This document shows positions 1,651 to 13,630 of a stretch of DNA of 13,709 nt, one piece after another (position 1 is the stretch's first letter; every line of letters begins with the position of its first letter). A model generated the notes under the pieces. It was not told the origin of the DNA. It saw nothing but the letters and a program-made list of their open reading frames with translations, and did no database searches. The position numbers and the translations under genes are program-made. The stretch is taken from UHGV virus genome UHGV-0265340; one strand, given 5' to 3'. This DNA comes from a virus.

Positions 1651-1929
1651 ATGATAAAAAGCTGGAAACACAAAGGACTTCAACGTTTCTTTGAAACAGG
1701 AAATGCATCAGGCATAAATCCCAATCACGTTAAACGCCTGAGAACGCGCCTTCAGGTAATAGATCAAGCTGAAATCATTGATGATATTAACCTTGCCGGG
1801 TACAGGCTGCACCAGTTGCAGGGGGACAGATCCGATACATGGTCTGTCACCGTCTCCGGTAACTGGAGAATCACATTCGAGTTTCGGAACGGCGATGCTT
1901 ATATTCTTAACTACGAGGATTACCACTAA
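1651..1929 (+). CDS. higB: HigB toxin (RelE/ParE-fold mRNA interferase, plasmid-killer family)
   Basis: 92-aa ORF from ATG 1651 with SD AGGAAACA (1640-1647); near-colinear with Rts1/Proteus HigB as recalled (MIKSxKHKGL ... GNWRITFxFxNGDAYILNYEDYH); stop TAA overlaps the next ATG (TAATG 1927-1931); toxin-first order typical of higBA. Confidence 0.9.
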   Translation: MIKSWKHKGLQRFFETGNASGINPNHVKRLRTRLQVIDQAEIIDDINLAGYRLHQLQGDRSDTWSVTVSGNWRITFEFRNGDAYILNYEDYH

Positions 1930-2234
1930 TGGCGATGTTTAACCCCCCTCATCCCGGAGAAATTATTGCTGATATTCTGGAAGATCAGAATATTGGAATC
2001 AGGGAACTGGCAAGAGCGCTTGATGTCGCGCCTTCCACTGTTCAGCGACTGGTTTCAGGTAATGCGACAATATCTCCTGAAATGGCTGTTCGTCTCGCTG
2101 CTGTCCTGGGTGGAACTCCGTCTTCATGGATTCGTCTCCAGACGGCATGGAGCCTCGAAAAAGCGGAAAGAGAAGTTGACGTATCTCATCTCTCAACAAA
2201 ATACCGCCCGGCAGAAATTTCGCCTCATGCTTAA
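1929..2234 (+). CDS. higA: HigA antitoxin (XRE-family HTH)
   Basis: 101-aa ORF translationally coupled to higB; HTH segment IRELARALDVAPSTVQRLVSG; overall similarity to HigA antidote proteins (PHPGEII...LED motif at the N-terminus). Confidence 0.9.
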   Translation: MAMFNPPHPGEIIADILEDQNIGIRELARALDVAPSTVQRLVSGNATISPEMAVRLAAVLGGTPSSWIRLQTAWSLEKAEREVDVSHLSTKYRPAEISPHA

Positions 2235-2281: not shown

Positions 2282-2527
2282 TCACCGGATTACCACATCC
2301 CACTCCGGCTCCTGCCATCTCAAATCCGGTGAATCATTTCTCTCAGGAATAACCATTACGTCCTTTTCCCTTCGCTCCCTTTCTATCGCCATCACAGCCA
2401 ATGCTGTAACCATGATGTATTTTTGTTCGTCGGTTCCTGTTTCATAACGACGCATGAGGGTAAACTCGGGGCGATCAGTAACCTCAATGATTTCGTTAAT
2501 TTCTTTAATTTCGCGAGGAATATCCAT
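2282..2527 (-). CDS. Hypothetical small charged protein (81 aa), divergent from the DUF4145-like gene
   Basis: ATG at 2527 preceded on the minus strand by a strong SD (AAGGAGA, 8-nt spacing); translation is E/R-rich and protein-like; no recognisable family. Its start overlaps the plus-strand start at the CCATGG palindrome (2524-2529), so it may be spurious. Confidence 0.3.
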   Translation of the reverse strand: MDIPREIKEINEIIEVTDRPEFTLMRRYETGTDEQKYIMVTALAVMAIERERREKDVMVIPERNDSPDLRWQEPEWDVVIR

Positions 2528-3200
2528 GGGTTTAGTCTCCTTTGATATCACATGCCCGCACTGTTTAAAAGAGCGAGCTGTTATTGAGGCATTTGCCGAA
2601 AAACAAATTGAAAAAACACCTTTTTTTAACGTCGCTTTTGTATGCAGAAGTTGTCATCGAGGAGGTGTTGCTATTGTTGAAATCCCATCAGACCACTATC
2701 ACGGTCCCATGGCGGAAAGCCAGAAAAAAGACCTCGATATTCTGATTTCAGGAAATAGCCAGTACCGTTTCCGCAAGATCTATCCTGTGGTCAAAAAAAT
2801 TACCGCACCAGAATATACACCCCCGGTTGCAGACCGTACTTTTGTTGAGGCAAAAGAGGATTTACAGAGGAGGCGGTACGACACAGTGGTTATTCTTTGT
2901 CGCAGAGTCCTCGATATCTCCACGAAAAAACTGCTCGGCGATGAAGCAGGAAAAGAATCGCTGTCGCAACGTATTCAGATGATTTACAAAAAAGGCCTGA
3001 TCACTGAACAGATGAAGGAATGGGCTCATATTGTACGAATTGATGCCAATAAAGCAGTTCATACAGATGAAGTTTTCACACCAATTGAGGCAAGCCAGAT
3101 CCTGAGTTTTACCGAAATGTTTTTAGTCTACGCCTTCACTCTGCCTGCAATGGTGGAAGCCAGACGTGAACAAAAAAGATCAGATTCAGCCTCTATATGA
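2526..3200 (+). CDS. Zn-ribbon + DUF4145-like (putative HEPN-type) protein, candidate defence effector
   Basis: 224-aa ORF from ATG 2526 with SD GAGGAA (2515-2520); N-terminal CPHC (C10,C13) ... CRSC (C40,C43) zinc ribbon; C-terminal helical region with R171-x7-H179 (RIDANKAVH) matching the DUF4145 signature as I recall it. Confidence 0.85.
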   Translation: MGLVSFDITCPHCLKERAVIEAFAEKQIEKTPFFNVAFVCRSCHRGGVAIVEIPSDHYHGPMAESQKKDLDILISGNSQYRFRKIYPVVKKITAPEYTPPVADRTFVEAKEDLQRRRYDTVVILCRRVLDISTKKLLGDEAGKESLSQRIQMIYKKGLITEQMKEWAHIVRIDANKAVHTDEVFTPIEASQILSFTEMFLVYAFTLPAMVEARREQKRSDSASI

Positions 3201-3222: not shown

Positions 3223-3244
3223 CCCCCGTCATTCACGACGGGGA
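3223..3244. other. Perfect 8-bp stem hairpin between convergent genes
   Basis: CCCCCGTC (3223-3230), loop ATTCAC, GACGGGGG (3237-3244); no U-tract on either strand, so at most a weak bidirectional terminator or RNA-stability element; overlaps the stop of the 3233-3664 gene. Confidence 0.4.
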
Positions 3245-3664
3245 GAACATCAATCCCTCTGCACTCCCTCGCCAGAATGCCAGCACACGCTGCATCGTTT
3301 CGCTGTTACGGCACTCGCGACAAATTGTGTTGTAGCGTCTGTCGTAGCGCCGTATTTCCCCATCTGGTAATGCCCGGATAAGGTCTGGATCAACGACAAC
3401 CGGTTTCTTCGACTTTGCCCTTGAGAGTTTTTTGCGGGCATTTTGCCAGTCCTTACGAGCCTGTTCAGACGGGAATACTCCGTAACCGGAATTGTAAACA
3501 TCACCACTGGCGGCCAGCTCCATGCATAAACGACCGACAGACGCATGACTGACACCAATTTCATCCGATAACTGCCGAATCGTGCCTCGTCCGTTAAGGC
3601 GTACGAATTCCACGATCAGCCCCTTAATTTTTTCCCGCTCTTCTGGTGTAAATGCTCTTGTCAT
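3233..3664 (-). CDS. Hypothetical prophage protein with winged-helix-like N-terminus
   Basis: 143-aa ORF from ATG 3664 (GGAG SD region 3675-3678; alternative GTG at 3670); HTH-like TIRQLSDEIGVSHASVGRLCMELAASGDV; part of the minus-strand early operon downstream of the replication genes. Confidence 0.7.
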   Translation of the reverse strand: MTRAFTPEEREKIKGLIVEFVRLNGRGTIRQLSDEIGVSHASVGRLCMELAASGDVYNSGYGVFPSEQARKDWQNARKKLSRAKSKKPVVVDPDLIRALPDGEIRRYDRRYNTICRECRNSETMQRVLAFWRGSAEGLMFSPS

Positions 3665-3679
3665 AAGCACCTCCGGAGA

Positions 3680-8723: not shown

Positions 8724-8726
8724 TTG

Positions 8727-9440
8727 ATGACCACACCTTCAGTTTTGCCGCAAAAATTATGGCGTCCGCTTGCAGAGATTAAAAACTTCGTTGAAAAAAT
8801 GCCTGATGGTGTTCGCCTTACGGAGGTTACAAAAAAAGTTAAGACGTTTGCCGAACTGTCAGGAAAAGAGAGAAACCAGCTCATAGATTTTATCGATAAA
8901 CGGGAAAGCATCATTGTATTTAAGGTCAGAAAAGAAGGTTCTGGTAACGGAGTAACCTTTTTCCGCCACAAAAAATATGGATATCCCAAACGGGAAGGAA
9001 ACGTCACAATCATTAAGGACCTTCAATCAAAATTATGTACCAGATGCGGGCAGACAAAATCAGTCAATGATTTTTATTCAGATGCCAGCAAGCGTGACGG
9101 GAGAGCCATTTATTGCAAGAAGTGCGAATCTGCAATGAAACGCTCACGCAGAGAATGCAACAAATTAATTCTGCAACAACAGGAACCTGAAATGAATAAC
9201 CTCAAAGCAGTTTCACCTTCACCAGAAATACTCAGAAAACAGGCTGAAGAATTGCTGAAAGCCGCCGAAATTGCGGAGAAAAAACGCCAGGAAGATGATG
9301 CATTCAACAAAAAACTTGCGCCCTTAAAACTTGAAATTCTTCAGGCCGCCGGAAAAATGCAGCTTAAACTGGACGAATTCATCGACTGTATGGATGAAAT
9401 GAATAAAGCAGTTCAGAAGCTTAAAGAGCTGACCGCCTGA
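8727..9440 (+). CDS. Hypothetical protein with CxxC...CxxC zinc ribbon and coiled-coil-like C-terminus
   Basis: 237-aa ORF from ATG 8727 (SD GAGG 8717-8720, 6-nt spacing; starts 4 bp after the N stop); CTRCG...CKKCE motif; K/E-rich helical C-terminus; AT-rich codon usage typical of phage cargo; no family recognised. Confidence 0.75.
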   Translation: MTTPSVLPQKLWRPLAEIKNFVEKMPDGVRLTEVTKKVKTFAELSGKERNQLIDFIDKRESIIVFKVRKEGSGNGVTFFRHKKYGYPKREGNVTIIKDLQSKLCTRCGQTKSVNDFYSDASKRDGRAIYCKKCESAMKRSRRECNKLILQQQEPEMNNLKAVSPSPEILRKQAEELLKAAEIAEKKRQEDDAFNKKLAPLKLEILQAAGKMQLKLDEFIDCMDEMNKAVQKLKELTA

Positions 9441-11264: not shown

Positions 11265-13337
11265 ATGAGCGCTGATAAACAGACTTTTGCACTACACTGC
11301 GAAGCAAAAAACGATAAAGTCAGAAAACGCCTTGGCATCAAAGGCGGTTTTTTCTGGACCGAGGCCAGAAAACTTTCTGTCGCAGTTTCCCGCTGCATTG
11401 CAGCCATGGACGATGCAGGCTACGACGAGGATGATTTCAAAAAACCCGTTCGCGTAAATTTCCCCGTCGTGAATGACCTTCCACCGGAAGGCGTGTTTGA
11501 TACTGAATTCTGCAACCGCTATGAAAAAGGCGGTAACGATGGCATCACCATGATGGCTATCCCCTTCGATGACAACATCAACGGTGAAGATGCCACAACT
11601 GCTGGCGATGACAACGATAACCTGGACGGAACTATTCCGGATGATGTGGAGAAAAGCGAATCCCCGGACAGCGACGATGACTGTTCTGAGTGTGAAATTC
11701 CCGTCGCCACTCTGAGCCTTACTCATCGCTTCCTTCACCTCTTCTTATTCAGCAAAGATGAAGATGGAAAATACCGGCATCATGCCACACCAGAACAACG
11801 CAATAACGTGATCCGTATGGAGATGGACACAGAGGACAGTTACCTTCAGAGCCTGCTTACTGCTGTGCGCGCCGCGCATCATGAACTGGATAAACTGACG
11901 AACTATCACCTTAGTCGCCTGGCTGAATCTGTAGGGAAAGCATTCCCCCACTCTGCAAATCATCGCATCAGCCCGGCTGAATTCGACAAGTTCATTTCCA
12001 CCTGGATGAAAACTGACTACCTTGATCAGGGCCTGCTGACAAAAGAATGGCAGAACGGAAATTATGTTTCAGGCATTACCCGTACGCCTTCCGGTGCTAA
12101 CGCTGGCGGCGGAAATATTACCGATCGTGGTGAAGGATTCAAACATGATAAGACATCACTCGCACGAGATGTAGCCACCGGCGTTCTGGCCCGTTCAATG
12201 GATGTGGATATTTATAACCTGCACCCAGCACACGCAAAACGCGTTGAAGAAATCGTGTCAGAGAATAAGCCGCCCTTTTCTGTTTTTCGCGACAAATTTA
12301 TCGCCATGCCCGGTGGGCTGGATTATTCCCGCGCCATTGTGGTGGCTTCCGTGAAAGAAGCACCAATCGGCATTGAGGCCATCCCGGCACGCGTGACTGA
12401 ATATCTCAACAAAGTGTTGACCGAAACCGATCACGCTAACCCGGATCCGGAAATCGTGGAAATTGCCTGCGGTCGCTCATCAGCACCGATGCCGCAGCGC
12501 GGAACAGCAGAAGGAAAACATGGCGATGAAGAAAAGCAACAAGCATCGGACACAATGGCTAATGAACAGGCAGCGCCTGAATCAGTGGAAGAAATTCCAG
12601 TTAAACATAATGAGGACACGCAATCACTGGAAAATGTCTCATCTGTAGAAACGAAATACCAGGAACTGAGGGAGGAACTCAATAAAGCCAGGGAAAACAT
12701 CCCCCCAAAAAATCCAGTCGATGCCGACAAATTACTGGCTGCCTCGCGTGGAGAATTCGTTGAAGGCATCAGTAACCCTGCTGATCCGAAGTGGGTGAAG
12801 GGGATCCAGACTCGCGACACTGAGGACCAGAATCAGTCCAAAGTGGAACAAATTGCCCCAGAAGCGGGACAAAACAGCCCGGATACGCAACAAAACGGGC
12901 CAGAAGAGCAACAGCCAGGGCCAGTAGCGCAACCGGAGCTGGAAAAAAACTGCCGCGTCTGTGGTCAGACTGGCGGGGGTAACTGCCCTGACTGTAGTGC
13001 GGTAATGGGCGATAGCACTTACACAGAAACTTTTGGAGAAAATGACGCCGCTGATGGAGAAGACTCAGCACAAACTGAGGAGAAGATCATTCAGGAAAAC
13101 TCTGTTGATGCCGCTCAGGAGGGCGAAACCGTTGTTCAGAACGAGCCAGGCAGTGATACGTCCGGCGATGACGCCAATTCTGAGCCAGTAACTCTCGACT
13201 GGAAAAGACAGCTCGTGATTGCCGCCGTCTATGGTTTGTGCGCCAACCCCGCATGTATAGCCACAGCGCCAGCAATCCCTGATATCGCCATCATGATTGC
13301 CAACAGGCTTGAAAATTTCGGAGGTGATAAATCATGA
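11265..13337 (+). CDS. Large acidic protein resembling the non-catalytic N-terminal region of RecE (exonuclease VIII) family prophage proteins; nuclease domain apparently absent
   Basis: 690-aa ORF from ATG 11265 (GAGG 11251-11254); D/E-rich low-complexity stretches; CRVCGQ...CPDC motif; segments such as NFPVVNDLP and [16 protein letters not shown]...[16 protein letters not shown]...[10 protein letters not shown]...[12 protein letters not shown] match my recollection of the Rac RecE N-terminal region (unverified); stop overlaps the gam ATG (ATGA 13334-13337). Confidence 0.8.
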
Positions 13338-13630
13338 ATGCCTGGCTTATCCCCGATCGCATTGAAGAGCAGTCATGGGCACGACACTACCAGCAAATTG
13401 CCCGTGAAGAAACTGAAGCTGAGCTGGCAGACGACCTGGAAAAAGGTCTGCCCCAACACCTGTTTGAATCGCTATGCATCGATAATCTGCAACGTCACGG
13501 GGCCAGCAAAAAAGCTATTTCCCGTGCATTTGATGACGATGTCGATTTTCAGGAACGCATGGCAGAACACATCCGCTACATGGCTGAAACCATCGCCCGT
13601 CACCAAATTAATATTGATTCAGAGGTATAA
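13334..13630 (+). CDS. gam: Gam host-nuclease (RecBCD) inhibitor, lambda type
   Basis: 98-aa ORF almost colinear and near-identical to the short (GamS) form of lambda Gam as recalled ([44 protein letters not shown]...[23 protein letters not shown]). Confidence 0.95.

Follow-up and report, generated by a model that had tools for sequence, protein, structure and literature searches.

The DNA analysed here (UHGV virus genome UHGV-0265340; 13,709 nucleotides (nt), referred to below as the window) carries at positions 2526-3200 of its plus strand a gene for a 224-amino-acid (aa) protein, WP_032144013, in which an N-terminal zinc ribbon is followed by a DUF4145/HEPN domain. This gene, called the HEPN gene below, probably encodes a prophage-borne abortive-infection RNase similar to RAZR, belongs to a distinct and distant branch of zinc-ribbon plus DUF4145/HEPN proteins, and forms a cassette with a small divergent gene. 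The functional part of this assignment relies on analogy with RAZR (ring-activated zinc-finger RNase), which is the same protein as PD-T7-4 of E. coli UMB1727 (PDB 9Y9C and 9Y6U; Zhang et al., Nature 2026, PMC13017515; Vassallo et al. 2022, PMC9519451). RAZR combines a Cys4 zinc ribbon with a DUF4145/HEPN domain and was experimentally shown to be an anti-phage nuclease, cleaving single-stranded RNA non-specifically, which is activated when its zinc-finger domain (ZFD) binds ring-shaped phage proteins (PMC13017515). The ZFD acts as the sensor that sets the specificity of defence, and swapping it swaps phage specificity; no other region of RAZR varies as much (PMC13017515). Substitutions R146A and H154A abolish defence, residues D179, D180, R184 and V21 are involved in the dimer-dimer (higher-order) assembly, which is a 24-mer, and overproduced RAZR is not toxic (PMC13017515).

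The elements of the cassette in the window are as follows.

2526..3200, plus strand: HEPN gene, encoding the 224-aa zinc-ribbon plus DUF4145/HEPN protein WP_032144013.
2526..2783, plus strand: N-terminal ZFD, residues 1-86.
2553..2564, plus strand: first zinc knuckle, C10-P-H-C13, read from the sequence; C10 and C13 are invariant.
2643..2654, plus strand: second zinc knuckle, C40-R-S-C43, read from the sequence; C40 and C43 are invariant.
2784..2825, plus strand: proline-rich linker, residues 87-100; P87, P95 and P99 are invariant.
2826..3161, plus strand: DUF4145/HEPN helical domain with a long C-terminal helix, residues 101-212.
3036..3062, plus strand: predicted catalytic motif R171-I-D-A-N175-K-A-V-H179, from the invariance of R171, N175 and H179 and the alignment with RAZR.
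2282..2527, minus strand: small partner gene, encoding 81 aa (WP_000354247; phrog_8371, function unknown).
2525..2528, both strands: CATG start-codon overlap, with ATG 2526-2528 on the plus strand and ATG 2527-2525 on the minus strand.
2515..2519, plus strand: GAGGA, the Shine-Dalgarno (SD) sequence belonging to the HEPN gene and embedded in codons 3-5 of the small gene.
2537..2542, minus strand: AAGGAG, the SD sequence belonging to the small gene and embedded in codons 4-6 of the HEPN gene.

The coding sequence annotated in RefSeq coincides exactly with 2526-3200 and is labelled 'DUF4145 domain-containing protein'. Its translation contains CPHC at residues 10-13, CRSC at residues 40-43 and the segment KKGLITEQMKEWAHIVRIDANKAVH with R171 and H179, so that the four-Cys ribbon and the R171-x7-H179 pair described in an earlier note on this DNA are both seen in one 224-aa open reading frame (ORF). 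The assignment to DUF4145 made in the note was borne out by the Pfam profile PF13643, which matched residues 118-197 to profile positions 11-88 of 88 with 36.9 bits (E = 3.9e-9), above the gathering cut-off of 23.1 bits. The note was also correct in that the spacing between the Arg and His residues (Rx7H) is one residue longer than in the canonical HEPN motif R-x4-6-H, with which the protein thus does not agree. Among phage protein families, the protein matches phrog_1305 (E = 1e-63), labelled 'DNA binding protein' in PHROGs. An in-frame ATG further upstream, at 2454, would give a protein of 248 aa; it was rejected as the start, as the homologues all begin at the Met encoded at 2526. The start at 2526 is preferred because M1 is invariant in 24 homologues and the GAGGA SD sequence is located 7 nt upstream.

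The key residues are conserved throughout a large family. The search identified 83 homologous clusters, nearly all of them full length (212-224 aa); in 24 of these, the most distant at 37% identity, C10, C13, C40, C43, R171, N175 and H179 show no variation. Of 150 representatives sharing less than 50% mutual identity, nearly all those of full length have two CxxC pairs and the R-x3-N-x3-H motif at matching positions, and this recurrence at fixed positions across divergent homologues is beyond what chance would produce. Conservation of R171 and H179 among homologues, the lack of which would by the earlier note have refuted its reading, is supported, the two residues being invariant in the former set and recurrent in the latter. 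An exhaustive profile search retrieved 3,373 representatives at E <= 1e-3 (family clusters at 50% identity), including 214 at E <= 1e-30, and nearly all of these proteins are ~205-230 aa long. The ratio of nonsynonymous to synonymous substitution rates (dN/dS) of the RNase gene was 0.183 over 68 pairs.

In the AlphaFold2 (AF2) model, the Cys4 ribbon of the ZFD consists of strands 4-8, 18-27, 33-40 and 46-52 and is followed by an extension of ~30 residues (53-86) with a helix at 61-68 and a strand at 81-86; matches of the ZFD to RPB9/TFIIS-type ribbon profiles are weak. The C-terminal domain has the helical-bundle fold of HEPN proteins, and its last helix contains the xTxP motif F204-T-L-P207. 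A search of BFVD returned two significant matches, both unnamed, and nothing informative. Mean pairwise identity within the family is 0.44 and 0.22 for the N-terminal domain versus 0.65-0.68 for the HEPN part, the equivalent values for RAZR being 0.45 and 0.87, respectively. The N-terminal ZFD, the most variable part of the family, is presumed to be the sensor by analogy with RAZR.

The relationship to RAZR was detected by several comparisons, for which the RAZR-Ec sequence was rebuilt from two database fragments and found to be 100% identical to chain 9y9c_OA. In the BLASTP alignment of residues 80-212 of the HEPN protein to residues 59-190 of RAZR (141 aa, 24% identity, pairwise E = 3e-5), R171 falls on R146 and H179 on H154, and the motif residue N175 corresponds to RAZR N150. 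Using a 130-sequence family profile, hhalign gave the pair a probability of 97.0% (E = 1.2e-10) over 121 columns; with shallow profiles the probability was 66.7%. The PADLOC model of PD-T7-4 (PDLC04109) gave the HEPN protein a low score (E = 0.0022) in residues 85-183 only, and PD-T7-4 was the best PADLOC family for half of the family members examined (12 of 24 at E <= 0.01; best 2.8e-7). A sequence search of the PDB with the single protein as the query gave no match even at E <= 10, and a profile search of the PDB listed 9y9c_OA second with E = 0.15, which is not significant alone.

The two proteins have in common an N-terminal Cys4 ribbon beginning with CPHC and a C-terminal DUF4145/HEPN domain with the R-x3-N-x3-H (Rx7H) motif, represented in RAZR by R146...N150...H154. 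The order of strands around the zinc knuckles is also the same as in a RAZR model, which was built from a 22-sequence alignment and is poor overall (predicted local distance difference test (pLDDT) score 62.6), and of which only the strand order of the ZFD, its more confident part, was used. The linker prolines P87, P95 and P99 align to P66, P74 and P79 of the RAZR linker (residues 66-79), where they are invariant, and the xTxP motif of the last helix reads FTLP in the HEPN protein and I182-T-R-P185 in RAZR. Thus the CPHC start, the three linker prolines and the xTxP motif are shared with RAZR beyond the generic DUF4145 core. The HEPN protein is 224 aa long, the deposited RAZR chain 219 aa and its homologues 206-221 aa, and both genes are carried by mobile elements. 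In view of this likeness and of the differences described below, the HEPN protein is regarded as belonging to a distant sister family of RAZR, which most likely works in the same way, rather than as an orthologue.

The second component of the cassette is the small gene at 2282-2527, which is co-directional with the lytic pR operon and shares the CATG overlap with the HEPN gene. A homologous small ORF was identified in 67 of 104 loci carrying relatives of the HEPN gene, always directly head-to-head with it, and all but three of these paired loci (64/67) preserve the exact CATG overlap, from Enterobacterales to Paraburkholderia and a metagenome-assembled genome of Zoogloeaceae. In a survey of 39 junctions, a core SD motif was present for the RNase gene in 25 and for the small gene in 20. 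The paired loci encode 38 distinct small proteins of ~60-80 aa with a core of ~55 aa (MN..LSNEI...L.SaDRPEFTLmQRYET...QK..FV.ALIGKLIEQDR), in which R19-P20-E21 is invariant. For this core, dN/dS computed from multiple alignments was 0.245 (294 usable pairs), and the divergence of the small proteins tracks that of the RNases (r = 0.77). In a search from the small-protein side, the RNase gene was next door in 47 of 55 IMG/VR loci, the other eight making up a single replacement lineage. That the small ORF might be an annotation artefact was considered and rejected, as its amino-acid sequence is conserved between E. coli and Paraburkholderia and its dN/dS is 0.25.

The small protein had no match in Pfam, NCBIfam, PADLOC or the PDB, and nothing on the HEPN family or its partner gene was found in the papers searched. 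The paired small gene is, on this search, previously undescribed. It has no counterpart in the RAZR loci examined, in which an integrase gene on the same strand immediately precedes the RAZR gene and no divergent small gene is present. Unlike RAZR, the HEPN gene is inverted inside phage operons and has a head-to-head partner. The role of this partner, which always runs with the surrounding operon, may be prophage self-immunity.

The family is carried by many temperate phages and prophages. Of 5,426 complete E. coli genomes, 37 have a copy of the E. coli allele group, in every case chromosomal, and the gene is present at 100% identity in phage PhiR5_2 and also occurs in the Shigella Stx phages 75/02 and POCJ13. 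Klebsiella phage 2b and Citrobacter prophages have relatives between the lysis genes and terS, and Burkholderia phi644-2 has one close to cII and the replication genes; others are located between cos and the portal gene in the P2-like phage Cartapus (a known P2 defence hotspot), between the replication and nin genes in Yersinia, and in an early operon of a Paraburkholderia prophage. In all cases the HEPN gene is inverted relative to the surrounding operon: long ORFs within 3 kb of it in 39 distinct loci amount to 44,229 residues on the opposite strand versus 3,045 on the same strand. The slot itself can hold other DNA, as in phiSTEC1589-Stx1c and eight near-identical IMG/VR contigs, where its content is unrelated. 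The variable position, the inversion and the replaceability are features of accessory cargo rather than of a core phage function, and together they form the signature of cargo expressed independently of the lytic operon.

Further details of this diversity were observed in individual loci. In the replacement lineage (phiSTEC1589-Stx1c, locus L005, 3065-3438; loci L141, L143 and L160-L165), unrelated DNA with a possible 96-aa inverted ORF (MDKKLNQARWNFHYE...) occupies the place of the RNase gene and reaches as far as the start-codon junction, and the small gene is kept with a start extended to a GTG. Only the first 375 nt of the HEPN gene match E. coli NZ_CP145707.1 (99.7% identity), which points to a recombination or deletion breakpoint inside the gene, roughly where the linker ends and the HEPN domain starts. 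Loci without the small gene mostly belong to a subgroup of ~212-215-aa proteins adjoining terS. This subgroup (N-terminus MAMMS...; L007/L008, 8001-8639; L002, 4001-4630; about 30 IMG/VR loci) lies 33-129 nt from the start of terS on the opposite strand, and its Citrobacter loci have a 119-aa ORF of unknown function in convergent orientation downstream.

A plausible mode of action can be outlined by analogy with RAZR. The protein would be made in the lysogen and would be inactive alone; its ZFD would recognize a protein or a protein assembly of a superinfecting phage, and this binding would position the HEPN dimers in such a way that R171 and H179 form an active RNase, which may then cut RNA, stop translation and abort the infection. 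Ring-scaffolded 24-mers are not assumed in this scheme. With lower confidence, and as a working inference, lytic transcription might silence the RNase gene by antisense, and the lytic operon might also supply the small protein as a regulator or inhibitor of the RNase, so that the prophage could replicate without triggering its own defence. Two known arrangements illustrate such a scheme. BstA with its aba element is a prophage defence with built-in self-immunity, in which an abortive-infection gene is expressed in the lysogen and the carrier phage must avoid triggering it; in excludon loci a long operon transcript acts as antisense RNA on one gene while providing the mRNA of neighbouring genes. 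Neither has any sequence relationship to the HEPN cassette, and the roles of self-immunity and antisense are hypothetical here. Two Yersinia prophages (L009/L010, 12490-13410) have a gene with a BstA_C domain adjoining a cI-like repressor gene, separate from the cassette that they also carry. A more elaborate proposal, which is tentative and on balance doubtful, is that the RNase and the small gene constitute a two-gene excludon-like switch, in which the trigger of the ZFD would differ from that of RAZR, antisense transcription and the small protein would disarm the RNase upon induction, the latter by binding it, and the overlapping starts with embedded ribosome-binding sites would make the expression of the two genes mutually exclusive.

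Several observations weigh against the assignment of the HEPN gene to a RAZR-like defence cassette. The PADLOC score of the HEPN protein for PD-T7-4 is 15.5 bits versus 339.7 for RAZR. The two ZFDs are not significantly aligned, as there is only a collinear 8-bit match and the ZFD lies outside the hhalign alignments; the N-terminal domain of the HEPN protein is also ~20 residues longer than that of RAZR, which lacks the helix-strand extension at 53-86. The RAZR assembly residues D179, D180 and R184 are replaced by V201, Y202 and L206, and because of these differences a ring-driven assembly cannot be assumed for the HEPN protein. V21, the fourth such residue of RAZR, has no assignable equivalent in it. 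With regard to the structure, the catalytic loop is of low confidence in the AF2 model (pLDDT <50 for residues 173-177), and a Foldseek search of the PDB did not retrieve 9Y9C, its best matches being HEPN toxins with E ~ 0.1. As for expression, a consensus scan of the region preceding the HEPN gene gave no promoter on the plus strand, and a promoter survey of the 39 distinct loci yielded weak candidates only, none of them clearly conserved. A -10-like element ends 75 nt upstream of the gene in several distinct loci; it is inside conserved codons, and no conclusion was drawn from it. No promoter can be assigned on this basis, and expression in the lysogen is thus deduced from gene orientation only. 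Finally, the small gene is missing from 37 of the 104 related loci and one lineage retains it without the RNase gene, so that the partner is not obligatory.

Other explanations of the locus have to be weighed against the preferred one. The head-to-head pair could be a toxin-antitoxin-like addiction module, in which the HEPN RNase is the toxin, the small divergent protein is the antitoxin, and the prophage is stabilized without any sensing of phages. This is unlikely, since the genes of such modules are normally co-transcribed and not divergent with overlapping start codons, the small partner is not an MNT nucleotidyltransferase and matches nothing in Pfam or the PDB, and in 37 of 104 loci no small gene accompanies the RNase gene, a state that a constitutive toxin would make lethal; RAZR, moreover, is not toxic when overproduced. 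It is also improbable that the protein acts as a nuclease on its own, with the zinc ribbon binding nucleic acid and directing the HEPN domain to an RNA or DNA target. Contacts with nucleic acids are common among Cys4 ribbons of the TFIIS/RPB9/NrdR type, and there are profile and Foldseek matches to them, although weak, as well as the 'DNA binding protein' label in PHROGs; however, this label is an annotation only, the ZFD of RAZR, the only characterized relative, binds phage proteins and changes phage specificity when swapped, and the ZFD is the fastest-evolving part of the family, which fits a sensor engaged in an arms race and not a nucleic-acid-binding module.

The HEPN gene has replication, Ren-like and nin genes as neighbours in the early region and is present in active temperate phages, which could alternatively suggest a factor of the phage life cycle, such as an RNase or regulator serving the gene expression of the prophage itself, host takeover or the control of lysogeny. 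Little credence is given to this explanation, because the position of the gene varies from phage to phage (replication/nin region, lysis/terS junction, P2 cos/portal hotspot, early-left region), its orientation is always opposite to the surrounding operon, its allele group occurs in so few complete E. coli genomes (37/5,426), and it can be replaced by other DNA. Very improbable indeed is a catalytically inactive HEPN-like adaptor or DNA-binding regulator: many domains of the HEPN clan are non-catalytic, the Rx7H spacing departs from the canonical Rx4-6H and the motif loop is poorly modelled, but R171, N175 and H179 are invariant across the family and the identical Rx7H motif is catalytic and essential in RAZR.

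The preferred reading, that of a RAZR-like abortive-infection RNase, modifies the earlier note in part. The note's suggestion of a defence effector is supported by the nearest characterized relative, RAZR, which shares both the domain layout and the Rx7H motif. Its view of the ribbon as a nucleic-acid-binding module fared less well, as the RAZR ZFD binds phage proteins and the N-terminal domain is the most variable in the family; the description as a single-protein system is doubtful in light of the conserved small gene paired head-to-head; and, instead of the defence-island or restriction-modification context with which the note had linked such domains, a lone inverted gene is found inside a temperate-phage operon. 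The first reading was thus essentially right on the domains and the effector role, and wrong or unproven on the job of the ribbon and on the gene acting alone.

The window, 99.6% identical to E. coli JNEC-KY204 over 13.6 kb, is the early region of a lambdoid E. coli prophage resembling Stx phages. The HEPN gene, on the plus strand, opposes the pR early-right operon and is flanked by a DUF977/Ren-like gene (3233-3670, minus strand) and the small ORF (2282-2527, minus strand). Other features of the window are the following.

pR operon, minus strand: cro-like gene, cII, O-like and DnaC-like replication genes, DUF1627, DUF977/Ren-like and NinB genes.
pL operon, plus strand: N, kil, RecE and Gam-like genes.
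1651-1929, plus strand: HigB-like toxin of the RelE/ParE type.
1929-2234, plus strand: HigA helix-turn-helix antitoxin.
3223..3244: hairpin, 8 bp G+C, CCCCCGTC-attcac-GACGGGGG, read from the sequence.

The HigB/HigA pair also opposes the pR operon and constitutes a second inverted cargo slot beside the HEPN gene; in Shigella phage 75/02 Stx this slot contains a RelE/ParE-antitoxin pair of different size, and in phiSTEC1589 two other small inverted genes. The DUF977 protein (3233-3670, minus strand) matches phrog_142, 'Ren-like exclusion protein' (E = 4e-40); lambda Ren is said to protect lambda against Rex exclusion. The hairpin at 3223-3244 is perfect, is located between the convergent ends of the HEPN and DUF977 genes and overlaps the DUF977 stop codon. 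It was not called by a terminator scan, and as it has no T-run, a role as terminator would be a mere guess. At 621-1313 on the minus strand there is an antirepressor-like protein with ORF6N and P22_AR_C domains and a weak match to the PADLOC candidate family PDC-S05 (E = 9e-8). The pL operon encodes at 8724-9440 (plus strand) a 238-aa protein of unknown function (phrog_2539), residues ~100-190 of which resemble the zinc-binding modules of Lar-like restriction-alleviation proteins and of endonuclease VII/HNH. The same prophage has a gene of the RecE exonuclease family (11265-13337, plus strand) and a Gam-like gene (13334-13630, plus strand), next to which the matching genome (L001, 16526-17988) carries Bet and a gene of the lambda-exonuclease family, so that two recombination exonucleases are adjacent. 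As ring-forming recombinases are triggers of RAZR, the recombination genes of the prophage bear on how a carrier avoids self-activation.

RAZR showed that assembly around large rings of phage protein can activate a bacterial RNase, and the generality of this principle is at issue. The family described here is large (3,373 clusters), phage-borne and uncalled by current defence-finding models. As it retains the linker and the catalytic core of RAZR and differs in the sensor domain and the assembly surface, it provides a natural comparison for identifying the essential features of RAZR, and the partner gene offers a handle on how a prophage with an abortive-infection system avoids killing itself when it turns lytic. 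The practical consequence is modest, in that lambdoid prophages of E. coli and Shigella, Stx-converting ones included, harbour such genes, which may influence the range of phages able to infect these strains.

Among other known systems, a fusion of DUF4145 to a zinc ribbon was already listed in a survey of this domain (Anantharaman et al. 2013, PMC3710099; clan CL0291), which also predicted for DUF4145 an RNase role in defence and abortive infection (PMC3710099). Most of the DUF4145 proteins in that survey, however, have restriction endonuclease, helicase, AbiJ-NTD or transmembrane modules as fusion partners and are associated with restriction-modification or Ter systems (PMC3710099), whereas the HEPN protein combines just two domains in a compact phage protein that has a linker and a partner gene of its own. 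DS-38 (DefensePredictor, HEP2, WP_001313577) is a validated E. coli defence protein with a HEPN domain and zinc fingers that its authors compared with PD-T7-4; it was rejected as a member of the same family, being 366 aa long with a C-terminal CTCF-like zinc-finger region (206-364), in contrast to the 224 aa and the N-terminal ribbon of the HEPN protein. HEPN-MNT type II toxin-antitoxin systems (7AE2, 5YEP) are encoded in an operon with the MNT gene, whereas the HEPN gene is divergent from its partner with overlapping starts and its product has an extra zinc-ribbon domain; the neighbours of the HEPN gene (the small unknown protein, HigB/HigA and DUF977) do not include an MNT nucleotidyltransferase. 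The kind of system is thus a known one, that of RAZR/PD-T7-4, and the HEPN family is a divergent, widespread, phage-borne variant of it.

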